Below are positions 8,898 to 63,318 of a stretch of 64,000 bases of DNA, in pieces. Below the pieces are notes generated by a model. The model did not search any database, was not told where the DNA came from, and was given only the letters and a program-made list of their open reading frames with translations. Each line of letters starts with the position of its first letter. The stretch's first letter is position 1. Position numbers and translations under genes: made by a program. Origin of the DNA: an uncultured Chloroflexia bacterium (GTDB lineage Bacteria; Chloroflexota; Ktedonobacteria; Ktedonobacterales; Ktedonobacteraceae); NCBI GenBank assembly GCA_963727755.1, contig CAVSHN010000008.1:541156-605155 (forward strand), read 5' to 3'.

Positions 8898-9350
8898 CTA
8901 TTCTCCTGTACTTCCAAAACCTCCACGGCCACAGCCCACCTGTCCCACTTCATCCCAGACAACACGGGTAACTGGAACAAATATTCCCTGAGCGATACGT
9001 TCGCCACGCAAAACAGAAACTGGTTCGTCACGAAAATTATAGACCGAGACGAGCACTTCATCACCTTCACCACAATAGTCTTGGTCAACAACTCCCACAC
9101 CGTTTGGTATCAATAGCCCCTTACGCTTGGCTGTACTGCTTCGCATGGTCAGGAGCAACATATATCCTGGTGGCGTCTCGACGATAACATTGCCAGAAAT
9201 GCGTGCTAACCTACCTGGTAGCACTTCGGTATCCTCACGGCAAATTAAGTCGAAACCCACTGACCCCGCTGTAGCATATCTGGGTAGTGGCAAGGCTGTA
9301 TCGACTCTTTTGATTTTGACATTCAAACTGTAAGGAAAATGGTTCATCAA
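8898..9350 (-). CDS. dut: dUTP diphosphatase
   Basis: 150 aa with dUTPase motifs (AGSVGFDL, PPGYMLLLTMRSS, GVGVVDQDYCGE, SVLRGERIAQ). Confidence 0.85.
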   Translation of the reverse strand: MMNHFPYSLNVKIKRVDTALPLPRYATAGSVGFDLICREDTEVLPGRLARISGNVIVETPPGYMLLLTMRSSTAKRKGLLIPNGVGVVDQDYCGEGDEVLVSVYNFRDEPVSVLRGERIAQGIFVPVTRVVWDEVGQVGCGRGGFGSTGE

Positions 9351-9361
9351 AATCTGGCAAG

Positions 9362-9783
9362 GATACCCCTGCCTTTAGGCATGGGGAGGAATTGCCCCCT
9401 GCACGCAATGGGATGTGGGGAAGGCAAGTGGAGGGCTGTCCTTGTGCGTAAGCACTCTCTTGCCTCTCCTTTCTGTTCTGTCCCCTTGCGGGGAGCCGTT
9501 TTTTGATAGGAACGGCTAAACCGACACTGGTCTCCCAGGTAATGTTCGCCTCGACGATGATATCAACCGGTACTTTCCGATGAGCACTGGCTTAACCCTT
9601 GTACACCTGTTTAACCCATCAGTTCTAGAGCAGCGGGCTGGCGTCGCACCCGCTGGTAGGAGCTTGAACACTTGTTGATATCGTAGCCCCGTCAGCCTTT
9701 CGGCTGGTGGCTGGGTCTGGTCAGGTGGGCTTGATGAAACAACGTTGCCGCTGCTCACAAGCCCCTAGCGAAAGCTTGCGGGT
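9362..9783 (-). mobile_element. Miniature IS200/IS605-like element with omega-RNA-like scaffold and no protein gene
   Basis: Shares its 5' hairpin, a ~270-nt structured core and a 3' end region with the IscB element at 61030-62701 but has no iscB. The 5' flank is TCAGG before AACCC. See findings. Confidence 0.55.
9516..9783 (-). ncRNA. Orphan IscB-type omega-RNA-like structured RNA
   Basis: Aligns end-to-end with the region 5' of iscB (62430-62700). Stems show compensatory substitutions (gatatcaac/gttgatatc versus gttatcgac/gtcgataac; cggg..cccg versus cacg..cgtg). Confidence 0.5.
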
Positions 9784-10636
9784 TCCTGACAGATGGGTTC
9801 TATTCTAGGGAGTGACATCTCCCCATGACTAATGAATGTTAAGAAATTAACAGGGTAAAGAGATAAGCATCGTATATACCCTCTTAATTTTTTAAAGTTC
9901 ATAAGTCATGGGCTTCCCATCCTCACGAATGAGCTTTTCTGTTTCATCGGGGGTTGCCAGTCTGAGCTTTCGCCTTGAGCGGGTCTTATACTCCCTCCGC
10001 AAACCTAAATTCCCCTGAGCCCCAGGGTACTTACTCAGGAGCCACTTTGGGCTGCTGACAACGCTATTCTAGCAGATCTATCGAAAATTATACACTGGAA
10101 TAGGCAAAAGGTACCCCGGTGCCCAACCCCCATTAAAGGACGCGTCATTCATCCCCATAGCTGAAGCAAGGGGTCTTCTGACGCAAGAAGAATAAGCGCC
10201 GACACGTCAAGGGTTTCCCACAAAACCCAAAACTGTCCCTCTTTTCTCCTATGAGAAAGTGCAAACTTCTGTTAAAATAAAATCAAAATGACAGGCACAA
10301 AAAAGCTAGAGATCCTGCCACCTCCGGTCCTACTAAAACGTATAAAGGGAAAGGCTGTTTAATTTGACTTACCAAATTATCCAAGAATTTCTAGAGAATC
10401 CGGCCCTCAGGGACTAGAATGAAAGGAGGACTTGCGTTATAATTGGAATAGGAATAATTTCCAACTTGATATTGTTGCTTTCTAGAAGAGACAGGATACA
10501 TGTCATTGAATTCCTCTTACTCGGCGCCCGGACAGAACGGTCTGACGGAGGCCCGTTTTCCCTGAGTGTAGGACCATACAAATGAACAGATATCTTGCTG
10601 CTTAGGATATACTTACTTTTTCCTGGAGGGCGCACA

Positions 10637-11852
10637 ATGATAAATACAAAGCGTGCCATGATGGGAACAACGCTTACATTAAATACAATGAAAGATCCCG
10701 ATCCCGAGAAGCCGTTCGACATCGTTGGGCAATTGCTTGCGAAGGATATTGATTATACTCCAGAGGATGAAACGGGCTCAGCTAAAGATGAACAAGAGTT
10801 GGAGGAAGATTTGGGAGATCTCGAGCTCAGGGCCCCTTGAGATAGAAGAGATTAGCGATATACACGAAGAGCTTAGTCCCGTACCAGCCTCTGAGCTAGA
10901 GGTTGATACCTTGCTCCAGTTGCCAACAATTGCTACGGCTACAGAAGGAGAACACCCTGTTCGCCGTACTGCCATGCGCCGTCGGCGTTCAGAAGACCAA
11001 GATGAGAACACCATTAATCCTGCCGATGCAGGCGAGTCAGATGCAGTAATGACCTATCTACGTGAAATCGGGCGGGTTCCGATGATCACGCACGATCGTG
11101 AAATTGAACTAGCCCAAAACATAGAAGCTGGTGATCGCGAGGCAATGAAACAATTTATCCTCGCAAATCTTCGCTTGGTAGTTAGCATTGCTAAACGCTA
11201 CGTTGGTCGTGGACTGACTCTGCTGGATTTGATCCAGGAAGGAAATATTGGCTTGATCAGGGCCGTTCAGCGCTATGATTGGCGTCGTGGCCATCGGTTC
11301 TCCACCCATGCAACTTGGTGGATTTGTCAAGCCATTAGCCGTGCAGTTGCCGATAAAGGGCGTACTATCCGTCTTCCCGTCTACGTCAATACCGCTCTTA
11401 ATCGCATTCGCCGCGAACGCCAACGCCTGTTGCAGGAGTTAGGACGCGAGCCAACTGAGCAAGAACTGGCCGAGGCTACTGGCTTAGATCCTATCCGTAT
11501 GGTCGAGTTGCAATCTGCACCCGGAGCACCTGTCTCGCTGGAATTGCCAGTTGGTGAGGATGAAGAGCAAGAGTTAGGTGATGTGCTCGCTGATACTGAA
11601 TCAGCTTCACCAGAAGATCTCGCTACAACACAAACTCTCAAGGACGAAGTACAACGCGTTCTAGAATCGGTACTCACTCCACGTGAACAGCTTGTCTTAC
11701 AACTTCGTTTCGGTCTAGGCAATGGTCAGGCTCACCCACTTGAGCAGGTTGGCCGAGAACTGGGTATCACTCGTGAACGAGTGCGTCAGATCGAGGCCGG
11801 AGCCCTAGCCAAACTGCGTCAGCCTCCTGTGCTCGATCGCTTACGCAGCTAA
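10637..11852 (+). CDS. RNA polymerase sigma-70 family factor (RpoD/SigA-like), frame interrupted
   Basis: Regions 1.2-4 are clear (YLREIGRVPMIT, DLIQEGNIGLIRAVQRYD, THATWWICQAISRA, RERVRQIEAGALAKLR). The acidic N-terminal region sits in ORF 10595..10840 and the rest in 10725..11852. They join by a 1-nt change in the CCCC run at 10834-10837. Start proposed at 10637 after GGAGGG. Confidence 0.8.
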
Positions 11853-12141
11853 TTCTGCCCTTACATGACATGGACAAAGACCTCCGGCAGGGTGTATTTC
11901 CTGGAAGTGCATCCTGCCGGGGGTCTTTGTGCGTGCATTGCCTTTCAAGCCATCAATAGATCGGGGTATTTCTCGGTTAGCAGGTCGTGCGCCTTGCGCA
12001 GTGCAACAACATAGTCTTTCATCTGGTAACGCCATAGTGCGCTCAAGGTTAGCCAATGCATGACTAAATTTTGCAAAAGCCTAAACTGGTCTAGCATCGC
12101 TCATAGGGGTAGCGCTACGCAAGCTGTCAGCTTACGTAGCG

Positions 12142-12466
12142 CTACCCCTCATACAGTGTCAGCCCTTCTTCCACGATGCTTTGTTGTAATAGCAGATCAG
12201 CATGCTCAAACTGCACTAGGCCGATTTTGAGGAGAGTAGGCACTCGATCGTCTTCCACATCTGCTAAGCGACAGATGTCTAGCCATTCCCTGCGATCTTT
12301 GACACCGACCACTGCCATATCAATGTCAGAAAAAAGTGGTATGTGTGCCCTTTGCTCGTGGACCGAAAAGAATGACTTTCTGCACGCTTGGGAATGTACT
12401 GATGTACTCCACCAGCTTGTTAATAGCCGGATGGAAGGTGTTGCTCTTCTGCGATGTATTCATCAT
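12142..12466 (-). CDS. Minimal nucleotidyltransferase (MNT/MntA-like antitoxin), frame interrupted
   Basis: MMNTSQKSN...VILFGPRAKGTHTTFF then SDIDMAVVGV... in the next frame. The break is an A6 run at plus-strand 12330-12335. The track's 12176..12511 plus-strand ORF is antisense to it. Confidence 0.5.
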
Positions 12467-12567
12467 GAGAAAATCCCTTTCGTATATCATATCACACTTC
12501 TTCTGTTATAGGAATGCTATGCAGGTCAGGTCATCACTTTGTGGATTAGCAGCCATTTCTTTTCTCC

Positions 12568-12921
12568 TTACTGTTCTCTAGAAGAGTATTCCTGAATAAG
12601 CTGTTCTATCTGCTTCTTAAGTATCGGCAATGCGTTTACTACTGTATCCCAAATTCTATTAAAATTTATGCCAAAATACTGATGAATGACAACATCCCTC
12701 AAACCTGCCATTTCTTTCCATGGAACATCTGAATGCTTCTTCCTGAATTCGTCGGGAAGGTTTTTCGTTGCCTCTCCGATAATTTCAAGTCTTCTGACAA
12801 CAAGGTCTTGCTTCTCTACAGATGTATGAAAATACTCTTCTGTTACCCCTTGCACATACATCTCTATGAGATTAATCGATTCCAAAATGCGCGTGAGAAA
12901 AACGATTGGCTCTTTTTTCAT
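12568..12921 (-). CDS. HepT-like (DUF86) toxin of a HepT/MNT pair
   Basis: 117 aa with the Rx4HxY motif (RDVVIHQY). Overlaps the upstream MNT gene by 4 nt. Confidence 0.7.
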   Translation of the reverse strand: MKKEPIVFLTRILESINLIEMYVQGVTEEYFHTSVEKQDLVVRRLEIIGEATKNLPDEFRKKHSDVPWKEMAGLRDVVIHQYFGINFNRIWDTVVNALPILKKQIEQLIQEYSSREQ

Positions 12922-13439
12922 AAAATTGGATACTGCGATGCTAGAATAGAGTCCTTCAAAAGTGGATGAATTCCCCCATACTCAACTACATCGACCTTCC
13001 TATGCAATATTTCCTCAATAGCTTGTTTTATCCCAATCAAATCAAAAAGCGTTTTGCCCCTAGGAAGATCAACAAGAACATCAATATCACTATTTTCGTT
13101 GTTATCTCCCCTTACATATGATCCAAAAAGTGCGGCTTTTTTCACTTCTGCCTGTTCAAGTACTGGTAGTATTTTTTGTACTATTTGTTCCAAAGTTAGC
13201 TGTTCCATTACACCTTCGCTGTACTCATTACGAATACTTTCACGTGCAAAGTTGAGTACCGCAACAATTTGCTCGCGTGTTAGTTGGGGATACTCATCAA
13301 GCAATTTCTCAATGGTATAGCCTAGAGCAAGCTGTTCAAGGACGAAATCCACACTGATGTATGTGCCTGCAATACAAGGCTTACCAGATGCGATGTTGGG
13401 ATCAATACTAATATACTGGTTATCAATCATAATGAGCAC
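12918..13439 (-). CDS. DUF433 domain fused to a minimal nucleotidyltransferase (MNT antitoxin-like)
   Basis: N-terminal IDPNIASGKPCIAGTYISVDFVLEQLALGYTIEKLLDEYPQLT is DUF433-like. C-terminal GSYVRGDNNENSDIDVLVD is the GSx9-DxD nucleotidyltransferase motif. Confidence 0.7.
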   Translation of the reverse strand: MLIMIDNQYISIDPNIASGKPCIAGTYISVDFVLEQLALGYTIEKLLDEYPQLTREQIVAVLNFARESIRNEYSEGVMEQLTLEQIVQKILPVLEQAEVKKAALFGSYVRGDNNENSDIDVLVDLPRGKTLFDLIGIKQAIEEILHRKVDVVEYGGIHPLLKDSILASQYPIL

Positions 13440-13493
13440 CTCCTCATCTAAATGATTACACTATCGAATCATAACATGTCAATCATTCCTGTC

Positions 13494-16042
13494 CTTACTT
13501 CTTTCCACCAAGATCGCGTGCAACAGAAACCACGCCTTTGATTCTCTCCAAGCGCATGAATAGGCGATGTAATACCTCTAGCTCAGTAATCTGTACCGTC
13601 ATAGTCACAATGGCAGTATCCCGATTGGCCCGACTACTGATCGAGAGCAAATCAGTTCCAATGTCACCAATGACAATCTTAATATCCCGTACCAGGTTTT
13701 TCTCGTTTCGCGCAACAACTACAATAGATGCAAGATAGTGCTGTTGACTTATTCCCGACCAATCTACATTAATTAGCCGTTCACCATCCTGAGTCCGAAT
13801 ATGAGTTATATTATGACAATCCGCACGGTGGACAGATTACCCCCTTGCCACGACTGACAAAACCAACAATGGCATCACCCGGCAAAGGACAACAACAACC
13901 CGCCAGCTTAGATAAAAGACCACTGACTCCAGCCACCTCCAACTGAGCTGTAGCCACTTTAGTGGTGACGGCAGGGAGTGGACGAGTGTCTTGATCTTCC
14001 TTCAGTTCTCTTGTTTCTTTCCCTTCGCGCTGCTGCCAGTATACAAGGAGTTTCACAACAACAGGATGAGGACGCATATCATCTGAACCAAGACTTGCCA
14101 GGATGTCCTCAAATGACTCGAGATGGAATTCGCTACAGAGCATATTCTCGGCATCTTCCGTGATAGCCTCTACACCACGAGGGCCCACAGCCTTGAGTTC
14201 ACGATCTAACCGTTCACTCCCAATTTGGATATTTATAGGCCGTTCGTGAAGCTTAATGTAGCGCCGAATTTTGCTCTTGGCTGTAGCCGTACGGGCAAGA
14301 CTCAGCCAATCCCGCGTCGGATGTGCCGTACGATTGGTGACGATATCAACAATTTCTCCGCTCTTCAATTCGTAATCAAGTGGCACCATACGCGCCACCA
14401 ACCGCCCTCGATCCTCGCCTTCTTCTATCGTCGGTGTAATAATACGCGCACCAGCACATTTCTCACCAATTCCAGAATGAATGCGATAGGCAAAGTCAAG
14501 CGGAGTTCAGCCAACTGGTAGATCTTTCACTTCGCCTTTCGGCGTGAAGACAAAGATCTGCTCCTCAAAAGCATCATCCTTGCTGCCCACATCAACCAAT
14601 TCGCTCTCGCTCGTATTGGCAGTACGCAGATCTTGCTGCCACTTGGCAAGTTGCCGCAACCAACCTAGTAACTCTCTCGCAGAGGCAGAAGCAGAGTCAC
14701 CAACATCTTTGTAATGCCAGTGCATAGCAACACCATACTCTGCCATTTCGTGCATGGCATGAGTACGAACCTGAATTTCTACAAGTTGGTCATCCAGACA
14801 GAAAACAGTTGTGTGTAGAGCACTATACCCATTGGGTTTAGGATTGGCAATAAAATCTTTGATACGCCCATCCTTTGGCTTCCATAGGCTATGCACATGA
14901 CTCAACACAACATAGCAATCAGTCGTCGTATCAACCAGGATACGAAAAGCGATCAGATCATGAATCTTGCTGATATCAGCCGCCGCCTTGAGCTGTTCAA
15001 AATCCTCAACCTCACTAATTTCGCGTGCAATTTTTCGATAGAAACTATAAGCATGTTTCACACGCCCAGAAACTTCCGCTTTGACTCCGATCGCAGCCAT
15101 CTCTGAGCGCAAGAGACCACAGACATGCTCAACATACGACCTCCACTGCTTACTCTCTTCCTCGATGATATCGCGCACCCAGTTATACTTCTCGGGCTCT
15201 AGAACCTCAAAGGCTAGGTCCTCCAGCTCACACTCTACGCGTGACATACCCAGCCGTCCCGCCAGTGGAGCATAAATCTCTCGTGCTCCCTGCGCTGTGA
15301 CAAGCACCTGTTGCTGATCACTTGGATATATTTTTTCACGTATAAGGCGCATAGTATACAAGCGATATGCAAGTTTGAGGAGCACAACTCTGGGGTCATC
15401 CGCCATTGCTACAAACATCTTGCGAACAGCCTCGGCTTGTTGGCGACGCATTGCCTCCCGTACACGCGGCTTTTTACTTTCCACATTTGAGGCTATGCCA
15501 GCATCATTTTGCTCATTATAAATCTTCTTATGGCTTGCAGCTTGCATATTCTTAATCGTCGCCATTGCACCAGTTGCTGCATTTTGCTTTTTACGTTCCA
15601 AAATATTGAGCCGAGCCATACTGTCAATCACACGTGCGGTAGCTCTTCCCAAGACACGCTCGACCTGCTCAATAGTCAAAAGTTCAGCATCTACCGCTTC
15701 AAAGATCAAGCCAGCAGAAATACCTATTGCATCGACATGCATCATTTGAGCTAGAATGGTTGTGACGGCCAGAGCACGTTCCACGCGAGGCAGGAGATGC
15801 ATCTCTTCTACGCCCTGGCGACAGCTATCTAGCGATAACCGAAAAGCCGCAACTACCATATCTACCTCCTGGACATTCATGTATGGGGATACCAAGTCCA
15901 GGAGTTGCTCCATTGCACTCTGGTAAGGATCTTCTGTGATGTGTTGTTCTATCGATCTATCATCTATCATAGACTTTTTGGCTATGAAAAGGTATACCAC
16001 CTCAAGGAGAGAACAGTTGACCTGTAAGGCCACCTCCAACAT
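13494..16042 (-). pseudogene. RelA-like long RSH paralog with degenerate hydrolase motif and several reading-frame lesions
   Basis: Synthetase domain is intact (DLIAFRILVDTTTDCYVVLSHVHSLWKPKDGRIKDFIANPKPNGYSALHTTV). The HD motif is replaced (FEAVDAE versus HDVVEDT in the neighbour). There is an in-frame TGA at 14497-14499 where the paralog has Ser (PVG*TPLD). Around 13812-13850 the conserved GKGVSVHRADCHNITHI only appears in a +1 frame between two compensating indels. An ACT domain follows, ending GGKK. Confidence 0.6.
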
Positions 16043-16186: not shown

Positions 16187-18640
16187 CTATTTGCTCGAAG
16201 CGCGTCCAACATCAAGCACCCCTTTCACCTGGCGTAAACGACCTTGGATGCGCTCGATTTGATCAAGAACTCCAGATTCAGAGGGAATCTCCAGGGTAGC
16301 TGTGATCACCGCTTTTTGGGTTGTAGTATTACTCGTCGAAGTTACTGATGTCATATTTACGCCAGCATCAGCCACAACCGATGCCACATCACGCAATAAA
16401 CCTGCACGATCATAGGCTATAATACTGATCGGAGCAAGATAATACTCCGGCTGGATTTGTAACCAGTTAATCTCTACCAGGGCATGCGTATTACCTCGAT
16501 TGCGATGTAGCTTTTGACAGCCATTGCGATGCACAACCATCCCACGATCGGGAGTGAGAAAACCTACAATCTCATCCCCAGGGAGAGGGCAACAGCATTG
16601 CGCTAGATGAACCAGGATAGTACTCTCACCATCTTTTTTATACAGGTTGCGCTCACTCCTCTTCACCCTATCCTTCTTATCTTCCTGTGTGCCCTGCTCA
16701 GTGCCAAATCGCTTAGGTAAAAGAGGCAATAAATGCTCCAGAACGGGCTCAACCTGGAGTTCCTCACGACCTAGCGCTAGATAAATATCTTCAACGGTTG
16801 CATATTTTTTGAAGATTGAGTCGGCAGCAATCTCTTCAGAGCACAAGCCAACAAGCAACTCCTCAACCATTTCATTAACACCTTCAGTCCCGGAAGCTTT
16901 TAGTGCCAGGGATAGCAGCTCACGACCCAGTTGGACATTAATCTGATGCTCATACGTTTTTAGATAGCGCCAAATCTTGGTGCGTGCCGCAGCCGTACGC
17001 GCGAATGAGAGCCAGTCTCGTGTTGGATGAACCTCGCGATTGATAATGATATCAACAATCTCCCCGCCTTTCAGCTTATAATCAAGCGGCACCAAACGCG
17101 TCACCAGACGACCACTGTCATCCATGTTTGAGATAATGCGTGCGCCCGCACAATGATCACCAAGGTCTGTATGAATGCGATAGGCCATATCCAGAGGAGT
17201 CGAGCCAACTGGCAGATCTTTCACTTCGCCTTTTGGTGTGAAGACAAAGATCTGCTCCTGGAAAATATCTCCTTTGACCGCTTCCACAAATTCGTCAGCC
17301 CCCTCCTGGGGTAAGGAACGCTGCCACTCACGCAACTGCTCAATCCAAGTAACCATCTCCCGATATGATAAACGCCAACTCGCTGGAACAATCTCCTCAT
17401 CGGGCAATTCTTCTTCTTCCTGCCCCATACGATCCTTCAGGTACCAGTAACTAGCAATGCCATAGTCAGCTGTACGCTCCATATCATGGGTGCGAATTTG
17501 AATCTCAGCTAAGCAATTATCCAGGCAAAAGACCGTTGTATGCAATGATTGATAACCGTTGACCTTGGGAATGGCAATAAAATCCTTGATACAACCATCT
17601 TTAGGACGCCAGAGCGCATGGATATGCCCCAGAGCAAGATAGCACTCATAGTCTGTATCGACAAGGATACGAAATGAGACCAGATCATGGATCTGACTAA
17701 GATCACTGCCATCTTGCGATGATGGCAGATCCTCCAGTTTCCGATGAATACTAGCCAAATGTTTCTGCCAAGCCATGATCTCAGCATTAATACCCGCCCG
17801 CTTCATCTCTGTATGCAAGGTACGCTGAACTTCACGAATAAAAGGCAGACGCCTTTTCACTTCTTCTTCAATTTGACGAGCAAGACACTTATATTTCTCC
17901 GGTTCCAGATAACTGAAAGCAAGATCCTCCAGATCCGCCTGGACCAGGGACATCCCCAGACGACGCGCTAACGGAGCATAAATTTCGTTGGTTTCACGTG
18001 CCGTATTCTGTTGTTGGGCAGGAGACATCACTGCAAGCGTACGCATATTATGCAAACGGTCAGCTAGCTTCAGGACTACCACACGTGGATCTTCTGCCAT
18101 CGCTAACAACATTTTACGTACAGTCTCTATGCGCAAACGACGTTTATCAACCAGTGAAGGGGGAGCAATTGGGCCATCTTGATCATCACCTGAAATTGGC
18201 TTATTGGATAAAGCTAGTGCATTGAACTTTGTGACACCATCTACAATATTGGCTACAGCTAAACCAAATTGGTCACGCAGATCATCTACTGAATAGTGGG
18301 TATCTTCAACAACATCATGCAAGAGAGCAGCTACAATACCTTCCGCATCGATACGCATGGCCGCTAGCAGCAAAGCAACCTCTAGAGGATGCTGGATATA
18401 GGGCTCTCCAGAACGTCGCAGAGCACCTTTGTGAGCCAAGAAGGCAAGATCATAAGCACGTTTGATCTGCTCAATATCCTGCTCTGCAAGATATTGCCTC
18501 GTTTCTGACAGCAAATCCTCTAAAGTCAGTTGAGAGGGCGTATCCCCTACTCCCAGATTCGTTGTTGTCCCGACTAGAGGTAACACTGCCTGAAACCGCT
18601 CGGCATTATCAACAACCTTATCAAAGTTGGTAGCCATCAT
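16187..18640 (-). CDS. rel: Bifunctional (p)ppGpp synthetase/hydrolase Rel (RelA/SpoT homologue)
   Basis: 817 aa. HD domain (HDVVEDT), synthetase domain, TGS, the CCCPLPGD zinc-finger region and a C-terminal ACT domain are all intact. Confidence 0.9.
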   Translation of the reverse strand: MMATNFDKVVDNAERFQAVLPLVGTTTNLGVGDTPSQLTLEDLLSETRQYLAEQDIEQIKRAYDLAFLAHKGALRRSGEPYIQHPLEVALLLAAMRIDAEGIVAALLHDVVEDTHYSVDDLRDQFGLAVANIVDGVTKFNALALSNKPISGDDQDGPIAPPSLVDKRRLRIETVRKMLLAMAEDPRVVVLKLADRLHNMRTLAVMSPAQQQNTARETNEIYAPLARRLGMSLVQADLEDLAFSYLEPEKYKCLARQIEEEVKRRLPFIREVQRTLHTEMKRAGINAEIMAWQKHLASIHRKLEDLPSSQDGSDLSQIHDLVSFRILVDTDYECYLALGHIHALWRPKDGCIKDFIAIPKVNGYQSLHTTVFCLDNCLAEIQIRTHDMERTADYGIASYWYLKDRMGQEEEELPDEEIVPASWRLSYREMVTWIEQLREWQRSLPQEGADEFVEAVKGDIFQEQIFVFTPKGEVKDLPVGSTPLDMAYRIHTDLGDHCAGARIISNMDDSGRLVTRLVPLDYKLKGGEIVDIIINREVHPTRDWLSFARTAAARTKIWRYLKTYEHQINVQLGRELLSLALKASGTEGVNEMVEELLVGLCSEEIAADSIFKKYATVEDIYLALGREELQVEPVLEHLLPLLPKRFGTEQGTQEDKKDRVKRSERNLYKKDGESTILVHLAQCCCPLPGDEIVGFLTPDRGMVVHRNGCQKLHRNRGNTHALVEINWLQIQPEYYLAPISIIAYDRAGLLRDVASVVADAGVNMTSVTSTSNTTTQKAVITATLEIPSESGVLDQIERIQGRLRQVKGVLDVGRASSK

Positions 18641-19014: not shown

Positions 19015-19320
19015 TTAATCACGGGCAACACGTACTTTATCATAGCAAGGGCTACAATAGACGGGGCGATCATTCTTAGGCAAGAACGGCACCTGCGTCT
19101 CTGTACCGCACTCTGCACACGTCACCGTGTACATTTGACGTGGGGCACGCTCACGACCTCCTGAACCGCCACTCGCCTTACGGCGGGCCTCCCGGCACTC
19201 AGGGCAACGGCTTGGCTGATTTATCAGGCCTTTTTGCTGGTAGAACTCTTGTTCGCCAGCTGTGAATACAAAATCATTTCCGCATTCACGACACTTTAGG
19301 GTTTTGTCTTCGAAGCTCAA
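19015..19320 (-). CDS. Zinc-ribbon domain protein (four CxxC pairs)
   Basis: CRECG...CPECR and CAECG...CSPC, 101 aa. Confidence 0.6.
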   Translation of the reverse strand: MSFEDKTLKCRECGNDFVFTAGEQEFYQQKGLINQPSRCPECREARRKASGGSGGRERAPRQMYTVTCAECGTETQVPFLPKNDRPVYCSPCYDKVRVARD

Positions 19321-19891: not shown

Positions 19892-19940
19892 GTTTCCTTG
19901 TAATGTCAACCTGTAAGCCATTCTCTTATAATGTCAACCT
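19892..19940. repeat. Direct repeat taatgtcaacctgtaagc in two copies, 26 nt apart
   Basis: Seen directly. Lies upstream of the paralog array and may be an operator. Confidence 0.5.
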
Positions 19941-20019
19941 GTAAGCACAAGGCTCTTGTCATGCCAACCGACATCTATTTTCCAATGAAAAGTTAAAAAA
20001 GTGTATAGTTTATACATTG

Positions 20020-20048
20020 ACAAAGATAGATGATTTTATGTATACTTA
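20020..20048 (+). promoter_or_regulatory. Strong sigma-70-like promoter TTGACA-N18-TATACT
   Basis: Near-consensus hexamers, ~190 nt upstream of the first array gene. Confidence 0.45.
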
Positions 20049-20149
20049 CCACGAGATACTCGATCTGCCAAACTTGGCAGCTAAGTAATAAATACTTTAT
20101 AAAGGAGGAGGTACGCATACCAACTTTTGATTTTCCTCTTCTGAAATCT

Positions 20150-20239
20150 TTCACTGTTTCGTGTGCATGAGAGACGTTTAGACGTTGAGACATTTGAGCA
20201 CATACCATTGAGATTTATTCTCCAGCAAAGGACAAACTC
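20150..20239 (+). promoter_or_regulatory. Conserved ~90-nt promoter/leader module, first of five copies
   Basis: GTTTCGTGTGCATGAGAGACGTTTAGACGTTGAGACATTTGAGCACATACCATTGAGATTTATTCTCCAGCAAAGGACAAACTCATG recurs at 20930-21029, 21560-21654, 22240-22331 and 23275-23364. It contains AGACGTT direct repeats and a candidate TTGAGC-N16-TATTCT promoter. Confidence 0.5.
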
Positions 20240-20746
20240 ATGATACCAAGAGAAATATCAAGATCAAAAGATGTAGCTGCGAATTCAACAGGAAAATCAG
20301 GAAAATCAGGTCCAAGACCTTGGGAATTAGATCAGTACATATACAAAGAGTCGTCAAAAGACGATGGTGGGCCGTCACACGGTGACCCAAGGCTCGAGTT
20401 CGCACTGCAAAGTTACGATCGGCACCAAACTGACAGCGACTTCAGACCCTCTGATGACTACGGATATGGCTACCCTGTCTTCGGCACCATGCCCGACCTC
20501 TCTGCTCGCGCTTCCTCCGCTAGCGAGTTGGGGACTCTGGCAGGGGGGGAGAGGTGGGATGAACTGTGGAATAAGTCACTAAAAGGATTAGAATGGGAAG
20601 GCTCTGAGAAGTGGAATCGAAAGTGGGATGTTGGAATGCGCCACCGCTTGTCATCTAAAGACACAGATAGACAATGGAATGGCTCTAAGCAGTGGAAGCA
20701 AAAGTGGGATGATGCAACGAGTTGGGGACGCACATATGGGAAATAG
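20240..20746 (+). CDS. Small acidic protein, tandem-array paralog 1 (conserved N-terminal ~100 aa, Trp-rich repeated tail)
   Basis: Shares GPRPWELDQYIYKE...DPRLE...QTDSDFRPSDDYGYGYPVFG...GTLAGG with the four paralogs. Tail has WxxxW repeats. Confidence 0.55.
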   Translation: MIPREISRSKDVAANSTGKSGKSGPRPWELDQYIYKESSKDDGGPSHGDPRLEFALQSYDRHQTDSDFRPSDDYGYGYPVFGTMPDLSARASSASELGTLAGGERWDELWNKSLKGLEWEGSEKWNRKWDVGMRHRLSSKDTDRQWNGSKQWKQKWDDATSWGRTYGK

Positions 20747-21026
20747 AAATGCATCAGGGACAATGTGAAATCAAAAGTGGGATGCCGGAGCTAGTTATGG
20801 ACGCTACAATTTGTCATCTGAAGACTTGAGTAGACAATGGAGTGGCACTAAGAGGCTGTGTGCAAAGGAAAGAGCAACGAGCCCAATCGTCCACGTTGCT
20901 TGATCAGGGAGCCGAAGCCTTCGTTTTCTGAAATTTTTCACTGTTTCGTGTGCATGAGAGACGTTTAGACGTTGAGACATTTGGGCACATACCGTTGAGA
21001 TTTATTCTCCAGCAAAGGACAAACTC

Positions 21027-21440
21027 ATGATGACAAGAGAAATATCAAGATCAAAAGATATAACTGCGAATTCGACAGAAAAATCAGGAAAAGCAGGCCC
21101 AAGACCTTGGGAATTAGATAAGTACATATACAAAGAGTCGTCAAAAGACGATGGTGGGCCGTCGCACTGTGACCCAAGGCTCGAGTTAGCGCTGCAAAGT
21201 CACGGTCAGCACCAAACTGACAGCGACTTCAGACCCTCTGATGACTACGGATATGGCTACCCTGTCTTCGGCACCATGCCCGACCTCAATGCTCGCGCTT
21301 CCAGAGCAAGCGATCAGGGGACTCTGGCAGGATGTTGGAAGAAACCAAAAGTCCATCAAATTATTCGTTTTCCTATTCCTGATACTGCTAATCCTACCCC
21401 TGATTCTACTGCTACTTCTACTCCTACTGCTGGTAATTAG
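21027..21440 (+). CDS. Tandem-array paralog 2 (Pro/Thr-rich tail)
   Basis: Same conserved N-terminal region. Tail is PIPDTANPTPDSTATSTPTAGN. Confidence 0.55.
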   Translation: MMTREISRSKDITANSTEKSGKAGPRPWELDKYIYKESSKDDGGPSHCDPRLELALQSHGQHQTDSDFRPSDDYGYGYPVFGTMPDLNARASRASDQGTLAGCWKKPKVHQIIRFPIPDTANPTPDSTATSTPTAGN

Positions 21441-21651
21441 GATGGAGGAGAGAGAGCATGTTTAAAGATTTGTGTGAGCAGTTTAGCGTAAAGAGTGAGC
21501 AGATCAACCATTAATGGCAGCGCAGGCCGCTTCTGGCGCGACTGACAAAGCAAGATTCTTGTAAAATGTTTCGTGTGCATGAGAGACGTTTAGACGTTGA
21601 GACATTTGAGCACATACCGTTGAGATTTATTCTTCAAGAAAGGACAAACTC

Positions 21652-22215
21652 ATGGATCAAATACACCATAGAGATAAACCGCTAGAGAAAACGGCGAAGC
21701 TAACAGCAAAAGCAGGTCCAAAACCTTGGGATATAAAGCAGTACACATACCAGGAGCCAATAGATGATCAGAGGCCATTGCACGGTGACCCAAGGCTCGA
21801 GGTCGCACCGCAAAGTCACGGTCCGCACCAAGAGCAATTTGACAGCGACTTCTCATCCTCTGATGCTGACCACGAATATGGCTACCCTGTCTCCAGTAGC
21901 AGCTTCACGCCCGAATACTATGCTCGCACTTCCACCGCAAGCGATCTGGGGACTCTGGCAGGGAGTTTAAACGACAAAGAAATAGATGCAAAATACTATG
22001 GTCAGCATTCTCCAGACAACTCGCCGAATGGTCAGGGTTCATCGCGTGAAGCAACACGTAAAAAACATAGGCTGCTATATCCTCCTCGTAAATCACAACC
22101 AGCAGTTAGTCAGTGGCACAATCAACAACAACAACAAAAGGCTGCCGCCAGCAAACAGCGTGACAGTCAGGCTCAATCGAACAAAGGTCAGGCAAGCCAC
22201 CGGAAAAGTAAGTGA
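21652..22215 (+). CDS. Tandem-array paralog 3 (Gln/Ser/Lys-rich tail)
   Basis: MDQIHHRDKPLEKTAKLTAKAGPKPWDIKQYTYQEPIDD... matches the conserved N-terminal region. Confidence 0.55.
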   Translation: MDQIHHRDKPLEKTAKLTAKAGPKPWDIKQYTYQEPIDDQRPLHGDPRLEVAPQSHGPHQEQFDSDFSSSDADHEYGYPVSSSSFTPEYYARTSTASDLGTLAGSLNDKEIDAKYYGQHSPDNSPNGQGSSREATRKKHRLLYPPRKSQPAVSQWHNQQQQQKAAASKQRDSQAQSNKGQASHRKSK

Positions 22216-22328
22216 CACTTATATACAAGTCGAATTTTTCCAACGTTTCGTGTGCATGAGAGACGTTTAGACATTTAGACGTTTGCACACATACCATTGA
22301 GATTTATTCTTCAAGAAAGGACAAACTC

Positions 22329-22790
22329 ATGGATCAAATACACCATAGAGATAAACCGCTAGAGAGAACGGCGAAGCTAACAGCAAAAGCAGGTCCAAAA
22401 CCTTGGGATATAAAGCAGTACACATACCAGGAGCCAATAGATGATCAGAGGCCATTGCACGGTGACCCAAGGCTCGAGTTAGAGCTGCAAAGTCACGGTC
22501 CGCACCAAACTGACACCGACTTCAGACCCTCTGATGACTACGGATATGGCCACCCTGCCTTCGGTATCGGCTTCACACCCGAATTCGATGCTAGCGCTTC
22601 CACCGCAAGCGATCAAGGTACTCTGGCAGGGGGAGGATGTCTTGGTAAACCAAAGCCCCGCGATAGGTATCAGCAGCAGATGCAACGGGAGGCAAAGGCA
22701 ACTATGGATTATAGGATAGCTCGAAGAGAGTGGGAGGTGAAGAAAACAGATACGATGAACAAGAGGATGGAACGGCTACGGCCACGGTAA
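22329..22790 (+). CDS. Tandem-array paralog 4 (basic, possibly coiled-coil tail)
   Basis: Conserved N-terminal region as in paralog 3, then a KR-rich tail. Confidence 0.55.
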   Translation: MDQIHHRDKPLERTAKLTAKAGPKPWDIKQYTYQEPIDDQRPLHGDPRLELELQSHGPHQTDTDFRPSDDYGYGHPAFGIGFTPEFDASASTASDQGTLAGGGCLGKPKPRDRYQQQMQREAKATMDYRIARREWEVKKTDTMNKRMERLRPR

Positions 22791-23361
22791 GTGGTGGATA
22801 AAGGTCCTCCCGGCCTAGCAAAATGGGCATCCATTGGATTACCTTGTATCTATGAAAAAAAGAGATACGAGCACTCCACAAAAGATGGATGCCTGCGAAC
22901 AATTTTGCCCGAACTTGGAGTGCGAGTCAAGAGAGCAAATTGGACAGGGAAATATTGTCGGTCATGGCAGTAAGGTACTTGACGGCTATGAGACAACGAG
23001 AAAAAGCTAGATCTTCCAGATAGGAAACCGTCAGGAACCCGCTGGCTAAAGCCCTGACAATTATACACAAGTCTGATGAGCTTGCTTAGAAAGCGGCTCT
23101 CCAAGCATATTGCCACTGTGGAGCTTTCATAGAAGCTTCTGCATTGTGGACTAGCTTTTGGAGCGACTTCTCCAAAAATGTGTATAAAAATCAGGGCTAA
23201 AGCCAGGGGCTTGTGAGCAGCTCAACCATTGGTGGCAGAGCAGACCGCTTCTGGCGCGACTGACAAATCAAGATTCTTGTAAAATGTTTAGTGTGCATGA
23301 GAGACATTTAGACGTTTGAAAACATACCATTGAGATTTATTCTCCAAGAAAGGACAAACTC

Positions 23362-23838
23362 ATGGATCAAATACCCCATAGAGATAAACCGCTAGAGAGA
23401 ACGGCGAAGCTAACAGCAAAAACAGGTCCAAAACCTTGGGATATAAAGCAGTACACATACCAGGAGCCAATAGATGATCAGAGGCCATCGCACTGTGACC
23501 CAAGGTTGGAGGTCGCACCACAAAGTCACGATCCGCACCAAACTGACAGCGACTTCATACCATCTGATGACTACGGATATGGCCACCCTGCCTTCGGTAG
23601 CAGCTTCACACCCGAACTCGGCGCTAGCGATCCCTCCGCAAGCAATCAGGGGACTCTGGCAGGGGGAGGATGTCTTGGTAAACCAAAGGAGAATACGACG
23701 GAGCTGCAACGCAGGAAGCAACAAGGGCAAGACCAGATTAGGCGGAACACGCAACAAAGGTTGCAGCAACATAACAAGACAATAGAACAATTAGGGCAGA
23801 GGCGGCAGGAATATCGTGCGAAACGGGGAGCGCGGTAG
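23362..23838 (+). CDS. Tandem-array paralog 5 (basic Gln/Arg-rich tail)
   Basis: Conserved N-terminal region, then a QR-rich tail. Confidence 0.55.
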   Translation: MDQIPHRDKPLERTAKLTAKTGPKPWDIKQYTYQEPIDDQRPSHCDPRLEVAPQSHDPHQTDSDFIPSDDYGYGHPAFGSSFTPELGASDPSASNQGTLAGGGCLGKPKENTTELQRRKQQGQDQIRRNTQQRLQQHNKTIEQLGQRRQEYRAKRGAR

Positions 23839-23978
23839 TAGCAGGTAAGTGGTTACAGGTGAACTACCGTTTTGAGATAAGTCTGGCCCAAGCACAATCA
23901 TGTTGCTCAACATCTAGATCATTCTCTTGGTACTTGACGGCCATGAGACAATGAGAAAAAGCTAGATCTTCCAGATAG

Positions 23979-25168
<1,190 letters not shown>

Positions 25169-61127: not shown

Positions 61128-62429
61128 TTAAGCACACTGCTCACCGCTCTGATAGCTGTACCCGTCCATCTTATGCACTACTTTACAATATCTGTAGCCT
61201 GTATCGAAACGAGTACCATCCTTTCTATAGAGTTTGAAATTACCTGTTTCACGTGCTGCAATGCGTCCAATATGCACTCCAGCATTCTTGAGGTGTGATG
61301 GCCTCACAGCTTTCACAATATCCCCAGTCTGGAAGCCATAGAAGATCTTGGCTTGCTTCGCCCCGCCGACTGGAAAACCGTACTTATCGTGATTTTGGAC
61401 TTGACGGCATCCATGTCCGTAAGCGCGAATTTGCAAGGGTTGCACACCTCTTATATTCAGAACTGCTGGTGTGCTCTTCCCCACGCACGCTGCGTCTAGC
61501 CAATGAGTCTTCGACAACTTGCGGTTGGTCCGGTTGAACTTGGTGAGCCCACCAGAACCGCACTCAATTGGTAAGCCAAAACCTTGCAAGCGCCTGAACA
61601 ATTCCCATCGTGTTGCATTCACAGCAGCAGCATCTTTGAGAGGTGCTTTTGCGAAGGCTTCGATCTTCTTCAAGAGATCTGGCTTTTTCTTGAGGAACTC
61701 CTCTATGTTCTTGGTTCCCTTGGCTAGATTGCGTTTCTCGCATGAGAGGCACAAATTGCTCACTCTGTTTGAACCTCCTTTAGCACGAGGAACAATATGC
61801 TCAATTTGCAGAGGAATATTTTCCTTGCCGCAATATGTACACTTATGTTCCCACTTGTGCAAGAGATATTCACGGACTTCATATCCTGCCAAAGTACCTT
61901 GCTGATATTCAGTGCCGGATATCTCAGCATTTTCCATCAGTTGCATATCGAACTTCACCAGCTCCATGCTGATGTTCGTGATATGACACACTCGTGCCAA
62001 ACGTTGGACCCAGGTGAGTATATTGCTGATCCGACTCTGGAGCGATGGTGGCAACCAGCCAGATGCTCGTCTTCTGTTTTGCCATCGTGGTTTGCGATTG
62101 CGGGTATGGCGTGCTCGTCTGCCTCTGCGTGAACCTCGCCGATCGTCTAAGCTCTTTTTGATGGCTTGCCCACGATGTGACAACTCCGCTGTGTAGACGA
62201 CTCTGCCGCTAGCATCATCGACAATCGCTATGCCCGTGGTTCTTGAGCCTGGATCAAGCTTGACCCGCAAATCGGGAACTTTCGGACTCTCAACCGCATA
62301 CTTCAGGATGATGGCGAATGGGAATTTGCGATATATGGCAGCTTTACCTGCATCCAGCAGTATCCTTGCTTTAGCCTCATGGCATGGAGCAAGCGGTACT
62401 TTGTTAGTGTCCATGACGAAAACTGACAT
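61128..62429 (-). CDS. iscB: IscB, the Cas9-ancestor RNA-guided HNH/RuvC nuclease
   Basis: 433 aa. PLMP domain (NKVPLAPCH), RuvC-I LDPGSRTTGIAIVD, Arg-rich bridge helix, RuvC-II ISMELVKFD, HNH CTYCG...IEHIVPRAKGGSNRVSNLCLSCEKRN, RuvC-III HWLDAAC. All catalytic residues are present. Confidence 0.8.
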   Translation of the reverse strand: MSVFVMDTNKVPLAPCHEAKARILLDAGKAAIYRKFPFAIILKYAVESPKVPDLRVKLDPGSRTTGIAIVDDASGRVVYTAELSHRGQAIKKSLDDRRGSRRGRRARHTRNRKPRWQNRRRASGWLPPSLQSRISNILTWVQRLARVCHITNISMELVKFDMQLMENAEISGTEYQQGTLAGYEVREYLLHKWEHKCTYCGKENIPLQIEHIVPRAKGGSNRVSNLCLSCEKRNLAKGTKNIEEFLKKKPDLLKKIEAFAKAPLKDAAAVNATRWELFRRLQGFGLPIECGSGGLTKFNRTNRKLSKTHWLDAACVGKSTPAVLNIRGVQPLQIRAYGHGCRQVQNHDKYGFPVGGAKQAKIFYGFQTGDIVKAVRPSHLKNAGVHIGRIAARETGNFKLYRKDGTRFDTGYRYCKVVHKMDGYSYQSGEQCA

Positions 62430-62700
62430 GTGTAAAATTCCTTTCGGAACCTGGAAACCCAGGTGATGTGTGCCTCGACAATGTTATCGACCCGGTACTT
62501 TCTGATGAGCACTGGCTTAACCCTTGTACACCTGTTTAACCCATCAGTTCTAGAGCAGCACGCTGGCAACGCACGTGCAGGTAGGAACTTTAACTCTCAT
62601 CGATAACGTAGCAGAGTCGCCTCTGCTGAGTCTGGTCATGTGAGCTTGTGAAACGATGCTAGCACCGCTCCACAAGCCCCTGCCCGCAAAGGCATGGGGT
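62430..62700 (-). ncRNA. Putative IscB omega-RNA scaffold
   Basis: About 270 nt directly 5' of iscB and abutting the element's 5' end. It is conserved in the orphan copy at 9516-9783 with compensatory stem changes. ORFs 62303..62569 and 9516..9758 across it are not credible genes. Confidence 0.55.
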
Positions 62701-63318
62701 TCATGACCTTTCTTTATTGATACCTCGTTTCCTATACTTTCGGAATGGCTCAAAAGCGGGGAGAACAACTCTATCATAAATTTCTTCGACGGGAACAGTC
62801 AAGCCAATACTTTGTAATTCCACATTTTCACCTTGCTTAAACCATGTAGTCAGCCATTGCCCGCCTTGCCGTCTCTCTATTTGGACTAACGTGCATTCAT
62901 AGTTAATAAGGACATACTCTTGAATGGAAGGACAATACGTATATTTAAGAAATTTTTCTCCTCTATCATCTTTTTCAGTAGAAGGAGATAATACTTCTAT
63001 TACTAATTTTGGATACTCTATATAGGTTGGATTTTCATCTTCCGCCAAATCCTTTTCATCGCATGTTACCATCAAATCAGGCAATAAACACTCATCCTCT
63101 ATTTTAAGAGTCATTTCTGTAAAAACAAAACAGGGACTTCCTTTTAGATGATTACCTAAAATGAGATGAAGATTAGATATAAGCATCCCATGGTGTTTAG
63201 AACCCCCCGCCATGGCTATCATACGACCATTTCTGTATTCGTATTTCTGGTCAAGAGATTCACGATCTAGGGCCAAGAAGTCCTCTACAGAGAACCAATC
63301 GTCTCTTTGTGCTACCAT
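62701..63318 (-). CDS. Uma2-family (DUF820) PD-(D/E)XK endonuclease
   Basis: 205 aa, similar to Uma2/putative restriction endonuclease family proteins along its length. Its 3' end is the insertion site of the IscB element. Confidence 0.65.
   Translation of the reverse strand: MVAQRDDWFSVEDFLALDRESLDQKYEYRNGRMIAMAGGSKHHGMLISNLHLILGNHLKGSPCFVFTEMTLKIEDECLLPDLMVTCDEKDLAEDENPTYIEYPKLVIEVLSPSTEKDDRGEKFLKYTYCPSIQEYVLINYECTLVQIERRQGGQWLTTWFKQGENVELQSIGLTVPVEEIYDRVVLPAFEPFRKYRKRGINKERS

Follow-up and report, generated by a model that had tools for sequence, protein, structure and literature searches.

We analysed a 64,000-nucleotide (nt) stretch of DNA (the window) from an uncultured Ktedonobacteraceae bacterium of the Chloroflexota (contig CAVSHN010000008.1), in which a tandem array of five small genes lies at positions 20150–23838. 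Coordinates are those of the window unless a related locus (L001 and so on) is named, and the features of the array and its upstream region are on the plus strand. The open reading frame (ORF) list and the alignment showed that the five paralogous ORFs are real, and they bore out an earlier reading of the sequence alone (the sequence-only reading), which had described a conserved acidic head of ~100 amino acids (aa) followed by unrelated tails: the first ~102 residues of the five products could be aligned, with 44 invariant columns, and the tails were mutually unrelated. Gene 1 (20240–20746, 168 aa) has an acidic head with a net charge of −4, a junction motif G-T-L-A-G at 20531–20545 and a 66-aa tail of Trp-rich 27-aa repeats with a net charge of +4, and its product was identical to the database protein P0008. 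In gene 2 (21027–21440, 137 aa), the motif at 21318–21332 is followed by a 35-aa tail that starts directly with Cys and is then Pro/Thr-rich, and this tail class was also found on a different head type in L001 (protein P0003). Gene 3 (21652–22215, 187 aa; motif at 21949–21963) ends in a Q/S/K-rich tail of 83 aa with a net charge of +10, whose L001 orthologue was 97% identical. Gene 4 (22329–22790, 153 aa) and gene 5 (23362–23838, 158 aa) carry the motif at 22617–22631 and 23650–23664, respectively, followed in both by G-G-C; the gene 4 tail is basic, 52 aa long and predicted to be a single long helix, and the gene 5 tail is Q/R-rich, basic and 57 aa long (net charge +10), with orthologues in L001 and L002.

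The array is flanked by relA and a small zinc-ribbon gene on one side and by tgt and lplA on the other. A decayed third unit of the gene 1 tail repeat (81 nt/27 aa, repeat families D7 and D9) sits at 20765–20852, past the gene 1 stop codon, and its blastn match was to the tail with none to the head, which meant that the decayed sixth gene copy suggested earlier at 20760–20900 is in fact this tail unit. Two copies of a 56-nt direct repeat (22974–23029 and 23929–23984, family D8, 95% identity) bracket gene 5, and the second directly adjoins the start of tgt. The first is overlapped by a short ORF (22834–23010) which, from its Cys motif, we take to be an N-terminal zinc-ribbon fragment of an insertion sequence (IS)-like transposase, and the repeat pair and this fragment suggest a rearrangement or IS scar at the array end. 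The tgt gene (queuine tRNA-ribosyltransferase, 23985–25168) consists of two overlapping ORFs with a frameshift near 24545–24600 (tblastn frames 3 and 2); it is intact (394 aa) in L001 and L002, and the window copy is a pseudogene or a sequencing error. The zinc-ribbon gene upstream of the array (CxxC-x17-CxxC, zf_Tbcl; 19015–19320, minus strand) is highly conserved and keeps its place beside the array in L001 and L002, and its protein cluster has 41 members at 90% identity across Ktedonobacteria, under names including Ktedonobacteraceae and Dictyobacter. It is the only gene beside the array whose relatives are named, and it assigns the window to Ktedonobacteria.

The heads of the whole family are ~100 aa long, with a median net charge of −6.5 and an isoelectric point (pI) of 5.0. 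In an AlphaFold2 model of gene 4 built on a 95-sequence alignment, residues 1–105 were predicted to be disordered (predicted local distance difference test, pLDDT, 54–71) with one short helix at PRLELELQ, and residues 110–150 of the tail formed a helix with a pLDDT of 90–96. Hard constraint on the head is confined to a few short motifs (GPxPW, Y-x-Y-x-E and H-x-DPRLE), above all the junction G-T-L-A-G. In 138 proteins, the L, A and last G of the junction were 100% invariant, T was kept in 95% and the first G in 99%; the residues before it were S/T-A-S-(D/E)-(Q/L), and similarity between members stopped exactly there. Gly was the next residue in 48%, and another ~15–17% had Ala, Ser or Cys there; the rest, about a third, had other residues, many of which were bulky or charged, most often D and R. 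Cys occurred within four residues of the junction in 32 of 112 tails, with the pattern LAG-G-G-C-[LFIV]-[GS]-[KT]-P.

The tails are 26–104 aa long (median 55 aa) and basic (median net charge +7, pI 10.3), with 12.9% Arg, 8.8% Lys and 2.7% Trp, and they are poor in Cys/Ser/Thr. They are also very hydrophilic, with a grand average of hydropathy (GRAVY) of −1.37 and a maximum 19-residue Kyte-Doolittle window of 1.13. Neither a signal peptide nor a membrane-length hydrophobic stretch was found in any family member, nor a transporter in the window, and the idea of secreted or surface proteins in the sequence-only reading was thus not supported. Clustering of the tails of 112 proteins gave 65 clusters, and tail classes recurred between distant head lineages (P0026/P0103, P0023/P0095, P0033/P0099 and P0041/P0097). 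Because classes recur across lineages and head types, the tails can be regarded as conserved modules that recombine behind the head. Several functions were considered for this anatomy and set aside. A lipoprotein lipobox (L-A-G-C) would need a hydrophobic signal segment, which is absent, and Cys directly follows LAG in only 7%; a removable tail, as on a tag of the Pup or ubiquitin kind, does not agree with the conservation of tails as classes; and the gene context gave no support to a likeness with an encapsulin cargo tag or a YxxxE signal of type VII secretion.

A head profile search of 5.8 billion proteins returned 113 family members, and the hidden Markov model (HMM) search of the head that had been proposed as a check, run as an exhaustive scan of 1.84 billion cluster representatives, returned 101 members, all unnamed, and no well-known family. 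The family counts ~140 small proteins, none of them annotated. The homologues in both sets were all 50–245 aa long, unnamed and without fused domains, and the E-value edge was sharp. None of the five window proteins matched Pfam or NCBIfam at E ≤ 1, and 95 members gave no Pfam match at E ≤ 0.01 except one chance SRP14 hit, and no PADLOC match except one chance hit. Since all matches are unnamed and unfused and the searches of Pfam, NCBIfam and PADLOC were empty, we regard the family as a lineage-restricted orphan; the sequence-only reading had recognised no homologue, and although more than 130 exist, it was right in that none belongs to a curated family. About 6% of the database members were frameshifted or truncated. 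Family genes usually occur several per contig, in arrays of 1–7 genes, and the five genes of the window are an operon-like array of this single family, which is most likely confined to Ktedonobacteria. At one locus (L008, 1–20486), a single family gene lies within a defence-island-like stretch, whose other genes encode a type IV restriction enzyme (Mrr), HmaC (E 2e-223), a HEPN protein, HicB and a SWIM/AAA_5/VWA set. A pair of paralogous genes also occurs near the family genes of L004 (6082–8213) and L008 (13112–15147), encoding proteins of 313 and 397 aa with a DxD-like motif and no Pfam match; the pairs are 86–88% identical, and the two neighbourhoods are otherwise unrelated.

Upstream of the array lie two 22-nt direct repeats, CTTGTAATGTCAACCTGTAAGC at 19897–19918 and CTTATAATGTCAACCTGTAAGC at 19925–19946 (repeat family D11), which agrees with a direct repeat noticed earlier at 19892–19940. 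A third, weaker copy can be read near 19953–19975, and related CTTGTCATnCCAACC repeats stand at the same place in the L002 units. The repeats lie just upstream of the array promoter and are candidate regulator sites. This promoter (TTGACA-18-TATACT, 20017–20046) is near-consensus and of sigma-70 type, with 11 of 12 positions matching and a predicted transcription start near 20053, and it was the sole strong promoter of the window array in the scan. Equivalent promoters (TTGACA-18-TATA(A/C)T, 11–12 of 12 positions) lie 209–223 nt before the ATG in L001 (first gene), L002 (four genes), L005 (two genes), L006, L007, L009 and L010. The full-length leader of gene 1 (20053–20239, ~190 nt) contains a palindrome or hairpin CTGCCAAACTTGGCAG at 20065–20080, in which one compensatory C-G to T-A change was seen across loci, a perfect Shine-Dalgarno (SD)-like AAAGGAGGAGG at 20101–20111, 8-nt units of the GAGACGTT type, the element TTGAGC-16-TATTCT and the real SD AAAGGA. 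In many family genes of other loci, homology reaches ~230 nt upstream, and alignment of 11 full leaders (A10) gave a mean column identity of 81%. Promoter and leader are thus conserved as one unit in other genomes, which bears out the earlier suggestion that the promoter at 20020 is part of the same control region. An upstream ORF behind AAAGGAGGAGG was rejected: only ATA or ACG follows, which is no canonical start codon, and AAAGGAGGAGG is missing before genes 3–5. The frame behind it (reading ..PTFDFPLLKSFTVSCA up to a stop) ends in a conserved ATGAG.

The proximal ~95 nt of the leader form a block that occurs exactly five times in the 64 kb (0 expected by chance) and, across ~240 kb of related loci and L010, only before family genes, one to one. 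Every gene copy has a conserved SD and start codon ahead of it, and the 8-nt unit (G/T)AGAC(G/A)TT occurs three times in block copies 1–4 and twice in copy 5. The proximal leader before gene 2 (20933–21026, 95 nt) scored 108 bits in nhmmer and has no promoter of at least 9/12; those before gene 3 (21558–21651) and gene 4 (22236–22328, starting 20 nt past the gene 3 stop) scored 106.6 and 102 bits; and that before gene 5 (23276–23361) has lost one 8-nt unit and contains TTGAAA-16-TATTCT, a 9/12 match. Genes 2–5 hold only these proximal 95 nt, without a canonical promoter (some genes elsewhere hold only ~55 nt), which does not fit the proposal that each gene has its own promoter module. The element TTGAGC-16-TATTCT, earlier taken for the likely promoter, matches only 8 of 12 positions of the sigma-70 consensus, its −10 is TCTTCT in several relatives, and the scan threshold was reached by copy 5 (TTGAAA) only. 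No plus-strand intrinsic terminator was found within the array. Because genes 2–5 keep only the proximal leader, the window array appears to be driven mainly by the 20017–20046 promoter, and the repeated block would be a shared translation-start and control segment, possibly with a weak internal promoter. The proposal that the AGACGTT repeats are response-regulator sites was rejected: neither the 8-nt period nor the copy number of 2–3 suits such sites, and the window has no linked regulator. A sigma-54 promoter was set aside, as no GG-N10-GC could be read in register. A structured RNA or riboswitch was also dropped: RNAalifold found 0 consensus pairs in 32 proximal blocks and, in 11 full leaders, a weak fold (−13.9 kcal/mol) that covariation did not support, the covariation term being +0.57 and any double change occurring in 4 pairs only, the z-score of the leader minimum free energy was −1.0, and no Rfam family matched the block or the leader. 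A stem GUGUGC/GCACAU in the block was broken in variants (alignment A5).

The sequence-only reading held that the upstream region is more conserved than the coding sequence (CDS); within the window, this contrast comes mainly from fast non-synonymous change in the CDS and not from an unusually frozen promoter. There, the upstream block was 83–97% identical, no more so than four-fold degenerate sites (73–94%), which largely contradicts the earlier statement that near-identity does not extend to synonymous sites; such synonymous similarity is largely what that reading had named as refuting its view. Between L010 and L005, however, the leaders were 88% identical and the CDS 48% (third positions 46–50%), and since leader identity far outlasts that of the CDS, the leader is under real constraint.

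The ratio of non-synonymous to synonymous change (dN/dS; pN/pS for uncorrected proportions) along the alignment, which had been proposed as another check, was obtained as pairwise Nei-Gojobori estimates on short, recombining sequences. For the flanking housekeeping genes of the window against L001 and L002, dS was 0.11–0.40 and dN/dS 0.09–0.34. The synonymous divergence of the heads was like that of the flanks and their non-synonymous divergence was much higher, with a median dN/dS of 1.1–1.2 and 65–72% of pairs above 1. Only G-T-L-A-G (pN 0) and the DPRLE segment (0.69) were constrained, and pN/pS was ~1 or more elsewhere in the head. Codon positions 1, 2 and 3 were 75%, 72% and 77% identical between loci and four-fold sites 81%, and a DNA-level function within the CDS acting through depressed synonymous rates was rejected, the between-locus pS of the family being equal to that of the flanking genes. 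Orthologous tails had pN/pS of 0.6–4.2, with a mean-based ratio of 1.0, and dN/dS of the CDS within the window was 0.7–1.8. Synonymous divergence within arrays (0.03–0.18) was below the between-locus level, therefore concerted evolution or recent duplication has occurred. The reading frame was uninterrupted in all 36 genes, the number of stops in the five alternative frames being 4–12 per gene, and in a neutral simulation only 8.6% of descendants kept the frame open. The family thus consists of real genes under diversifying selection or purely compositional constraint, in which the non-coding leader is the most constrained part and both protein halves evolve at dN/dS ~1 or more.

Comparison of the related loci revealed two kinds of neighbourhood and a possible protease partner. 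In three loci, the context is that of the window, with relA, zinc-ribbon gene, array, tgt and lplA. In the second context (L006, L007, L009 and L010), a gene for a TPR and Ser/Thr kinase protein of 1000–1800 aa directly precedes the array, and past the array come a convergent GAF-GAF-PucR regulator, a PAS histidine kinase and a sigma-54 activator. The C-terminal domain of the TPR-kinase protein (~180 aa) matched Peptidase_C39_2 with an E-value of 2e-4, and the L005 array adjoins a different 511-aa protein that ends in the same domain (Peptidase_C39, E 0.017). C26, H135 and D157 were invariant in seven sequences from seven loci or contigs, and the domain is modelled with a papain-like alpha+beta fold closest to the peptidase domains of PCAT, ComA and LahT. 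Searches with the C39 domain found 4 and 2 proteins, which are lower bounds, as the L006, L007 and L009 proteins were not among them. L010 was retrieved by the protease-domain search, and an array was present there too: four genes at 11289–13523 of that locus, with the same leader DNA (96 bits), adjoin the kinase-C39 gene, and their products could be linked to the family by profile-profile comparison only (E 9.5e-5). The linked kinase matched only generic kinase models of PADLOC. The TPR-kinase-C39 gene evolved with a dN/dS of ~1 (0.9–1.1), a value that misalignment of the TPR repeats may inflate, and its neighbours had 0.09–0.24. The TPR-kinase-C39 proteins (L006 29–3088, L007 2693–6121, L009 4041–7217) were only 55–59% identical, and the PucR, histidine kinase and sigma-54 regulator genes beside them were 90–96% identical.

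The anatomy of the family recalls the long-leader peptide precursors of the NHLP and Nif11 types (TIGR03793 and TIGR03798; for example, prochlorosin ProcA), in which a leader of 70–100 aa is conserved up to a Gly-Gly-type motif and followed by a hypervariable C-terminus, with many paralogues per genome. Such precursors, whose many paralogues sometimes lie far from the processing genes, are processed by a C39-fold protease, and the published leader logo of the NHLP, Nif11 and class II types has acidic residues at positions 1, 4 and 6, Leu at 2 and 7, Ser/Thr at 3, Val/Leu at 10 and Gly-Gly at 12–13 (PMC2887384). The family logo agrees in Ser/Thr at 3, Asp/Glu at 6, Gln/Leu at 7, Leu at 10 and Gly at 12; counted with Gly-Gly as −2/−1, the likeness lies in Leu −4, acidic −8 and Ser/Thr −11. 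However, there is no sequence relationship and no match to TIGR03793, TIGR03798 or PF07862, the head here is acidic and predicted to be disordered where theirs is a folded nitrile hydratase (NHase)-like or Nif11-like domain, the cores are long, basic and Cys/Ser/Thr-poor, no ABC transporter or modification enzyme is linked, fewer than half of the members (48%) have the second Gly, and the leader peptide itself evolves at dN/dS ~1. Class II bacteriocins (TIGR01847 type) have a leader of only 15–30 aa with GG at its end, and their mature peptide is cationic amphiphilic or hydrophobic, unlike the ~102-aa leader and the tails without a hydrophobic stretch found here. The linked domain shares Cys, His and Asp with the C39 domains of the PCAT/AMS transporters (PCAT1, ComA, LahT150), but it is not part of an ABC transporter; it stands behind TPR repeats and a Ser/Thr kinase that appears to be active (behind a helical repeat region in L005), has very few detectable homologues and evolves fast.

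A profile search of the PDB with the linked domain gave CdiA- and PAAR-linked papain-like toxins as the best matches (E 0.005–0.02), which span both the Cys and the His/Asp regions. A characterised toxin of this CdiA/PAAR-linked class, Cpe1, targets GyrB/ParE and cuts at a double glycine, between LHAGG and KF, and its immunity protein blocks the substrate groove (PMC12136450). The Cpe1 site L-H-A-G-G is close to the T-L-A-G-G found here, but the CdiA/PAAR/Rhs toxins are delivered between bacteria and have dedicated immunity proteins, whereas the domain found here belongs to a cytoplasmic protein of signalling type, encoded beside arrays of small proteins with the motif. Another parallel concerns conflict systems. 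Bacterial gasdermins with adjacent repeat-domain proteases form protease-activated effector modules of such systems. By analogy, the sister arrays may likewise pair a repeat-domain (TPR) protease gene with small effector genes, both partners being fast-evolving and one family gene lying inside a defence island; but there is no PADLOC homology, the tails are unrelated, short and basic rather than one pore-forming domain, and the window array lies in a stable housekeeping neighbourhood.

We propose, with a probability of roughly 45%, that the products are pro-proteins which are cut at GTLAG(G) by a family-specific C39-type protease and so release diverse cationic effectors. Each product would be a two-part pro-protein, an acidic disordered head of ~100 aa and a class-specific basic, hydrophilic tail peptide or mini-domain, and the junction G-T-L-A-G would be the cleavage site of a C39-type (double-glycine) cysteine protease, usually the C-terminal domain of the large cytoplasmic TPR-Ser/Thr-kinase protein encoded beside sister arrays in related genomes. 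The cut would free the tails from their charge-neutralising head, and the tails would then serve as a set of varied cationic effectors. Transcription would start mainly at the strong, regulated promoter at 20017–20046, and the proximal leader before every gene, perhaps as a weak internal promoter or operator, would keep all copies under one control. The array would diversify by duplication, gene conversion and recombination in the conserved 5' part, which reshuffles the tail cassettes. Processing at GTLAG(G) is the most economical explanation because the boundary motif resembles double-glycine leader ends and the C39-fold linkage is repeated; the cut would fall at or next to the junction, beyond which a second Gly is found in no more than 48% of members. 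In this respect the precursor of a ribosomally synthesised and post-translationally modified peptide (RiPP), one of the ideas in the sequence-only reading, was its closest guess: the motif end is double-glycine-like and sister arrays have a linked C39-fold protease, but the NHLP and Nif11 models were unmatched.

Several observations weigh against the proposed processing. About a third of members have a bulky or charged residue in the place of the second Gly, which is unusual for C39 substrates. The Peptidase_C39_2 scores (22.2 and 22.1 bits) are under the curated cut-off of 24, and the L005 Peptidase_C39 score (15.4) is below its gathering threshold of 22; the structural model of the domain, from a 4-sequence alignment, has a pLDDT of 56–78 and is of moderate confidence. 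The 64-kb window has no homologue of the protease, the kinase, the PucR regulator, the histidine kinase or the activator and no transporter, and the arrays of the window, L001 and L002 lie between relA with the zinc-ribbon gene and tgt without a partner gene. Because L006, L007, L009 and L010 are orthologous, the protease linkage comes down to only two independent locus types. In the L010 subfamily, the junction is L-G-E-P-K-G and the heads are basic, without the acidic head and basic tail. This switch of junction may reflect co-evolution of protease and site. A dN/dS of ~1 could reflect mere compositional constraint on disordered proteins. Typical membrane-active bacteriocins are far less hydrophilic than the family tails with their GRAVY of −1.37.

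An alternative that keeps the cleavage at the junction but places the products outside the cell is that they are exported precursors, either unmodified bacteriocins or long-leader RiPPs of the NHLP/Nif11 kind, with the head as a leader peptide that is recognised by a PCAT, and perhaps also by modifying enzymes, encoded elsewhere, so that the tails would be secreted antimicrobial or signalling peptides. The long conserved leader with its GG-like end, the hypervariable cores and the paralogues far from enzymes are just as in NHLP/N11P (PMC2887384), the junction logo fits in part, the 32 of 112 tails with Cys near the junction could be read in this way, and fast diversifying evolution would suit secreted antagonistic peptides. 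We nevertheless consider it unlikely: no NHLP or Nif11 model of NCBIfam or Pfam was matched, the head appears in the model to be disordered instead of a folded NHase-like or Nif11-like domain, and the tails are long (median 55 aa), Cys/Ser/Thr-poor and extremely hydrophilic. Neither the window nor 10 kb around the arrays in 10 related loci contained a PCAT-type ABC exporter, a LanM or a cyclodehydratase, the sole radical-SAM gene among the 10 loci lies ~7 kb from the L005 array with none adjacent, and the fusion partner of the one linked C39 domain is a cytoplasmic TPR-kinase and not a transporter. If, on the other hand, there is no cleavage at all, the products might be abundant disordered diblock polyampholytes, whose role would be that of condensate scaffolds or of proteins for stress, desiccation or spores; phosphorylation by the neighbouring kinase may tune them, and G-T-L-A-G would be a binding motif. 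Predicted disorder with strong charge segregation, the very hydrophilic composition, one strong promoter and strong SD (suggesting high expression), a dN/dS of ~1 with open frames as in composition-only selection, the linked Ser/Thr kinase and the conserved Ser-rich stretch before the junction all agree with this, but an invariant five-residue motif at the similarity boundary, together with tail classes that are kept and partly form confident helices, points to discrete tail functions, the L010 subfamily lacks the charge pattern, and the recurrent C39-fold domain is left unexplained, so we hold this to be quite unlikely.

A different role for the same motif would be that of a decoy. If the TPR-kinase-C39 protein is a toxic effector whose real targets are essential host proteins with AGG-type loops, family members could act as pseudo-substrates or antitoxin-like inhibitors through GTLAG(G). 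The nearest PDB relatives of the protease domain are interbacterial papain-like toxins, of which Cpe1 cleaves LHAGG in GyrB/ParE and is blocked by a groove-bound immunity protein (PMC12136450); both partners evolve fast, and one family gene is in a defence island. But this role needs no 65 or more conserved tail classes, a 2–7-fold redundancy of genes that differ in their tails would be puzzling in an antitoxin, and the arrays of the window, L001, L002, L004 and L008 have no linked protease, which makes the explanation improbable. Finally, the array could be non-functional, made of decaying duplicates or a selfish DNA repeat with incidental ORFs, as might be thought from the dN/dS of ~1 with codon position 2 the least conserved, the ~6% of frameshifted or truncated database members, and the IS fragments and rearrangement scars in the array. 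This is hardly credible given 0 in-frame stops in 36 of 36 genes against 4–12 in other frames and a neutral expectation of 8.6%, the invariant GTLAG with pN 0, the conservation of tail classes across genomes, and the conserved SD and start codon before every copy.

Returning to pro-proteins cut by a C39-type protease, the evolutionary rates suggest what the processing might be for, as they resemble those of a conflict system (antagonism or immunity). A conflict-type role is suggested by the fast rates in both partners, the exchange of tail cassettes, the L008 defence-island gene and the TPR-kinase-protease architecture, and co-evolution of sensor and substrates by the switch of the junction to L-G-E-P-K-G in the L010 lineage. 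A possible but doubtful extension is that a cytoplasmic TPR/kinase/C39 sensor cuts the battery of pro-proteins on a signal and frees dozens of arginine-rich peptides inside the cell, which would be a transporter-independent conflict or cell-fate system (immunity, programmed death or development in the mycelial Ktedonobacteria) with co-evolving sensor and substrates.

Two further features of the window lie apart from the array. A 511-aa ORF (14507–16042, minus strand) next to the RelA/SpoT gene (16187–18640) matches the C-terminal two-thirds of the latter with 41% identity and is a second, shorter RelA-like paralogue; L001 and L002 likewise have two RelA-like genes here. Two full-length matches to HEARO RNA (RF02033), the guide RNA of IscB-type nucleases, were found on the minus strand at 9539–9790 and 62463–62707 (129 and 120 bits). 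A 433-aa ORF (61128–62429, minus strand) follows the second match and only a 150-aa ORF (8898–9350, minus strand) the first, which may be a degraded copy.

If the array products are indeed cut as proposed, the double-glycine leader/C39 principle would move from export by ABC transporters to an intracellular, kinase-coupled setting with 100-residue disordered leaders and long basic cargoes. The family would then be a new class of substrates with at least 65 tail classes, which would be candidate antimicrobial, nucleic-acid-binding or toxic peptides in a phylum already mined for natural products, and it would show, in compact and natural form, how cassettes are shuffled behind a conserved 5' module. 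With or without the protease link, the locus stands out in that both halves of the protein evolve fast and the non-coding leader is the most constrained part.

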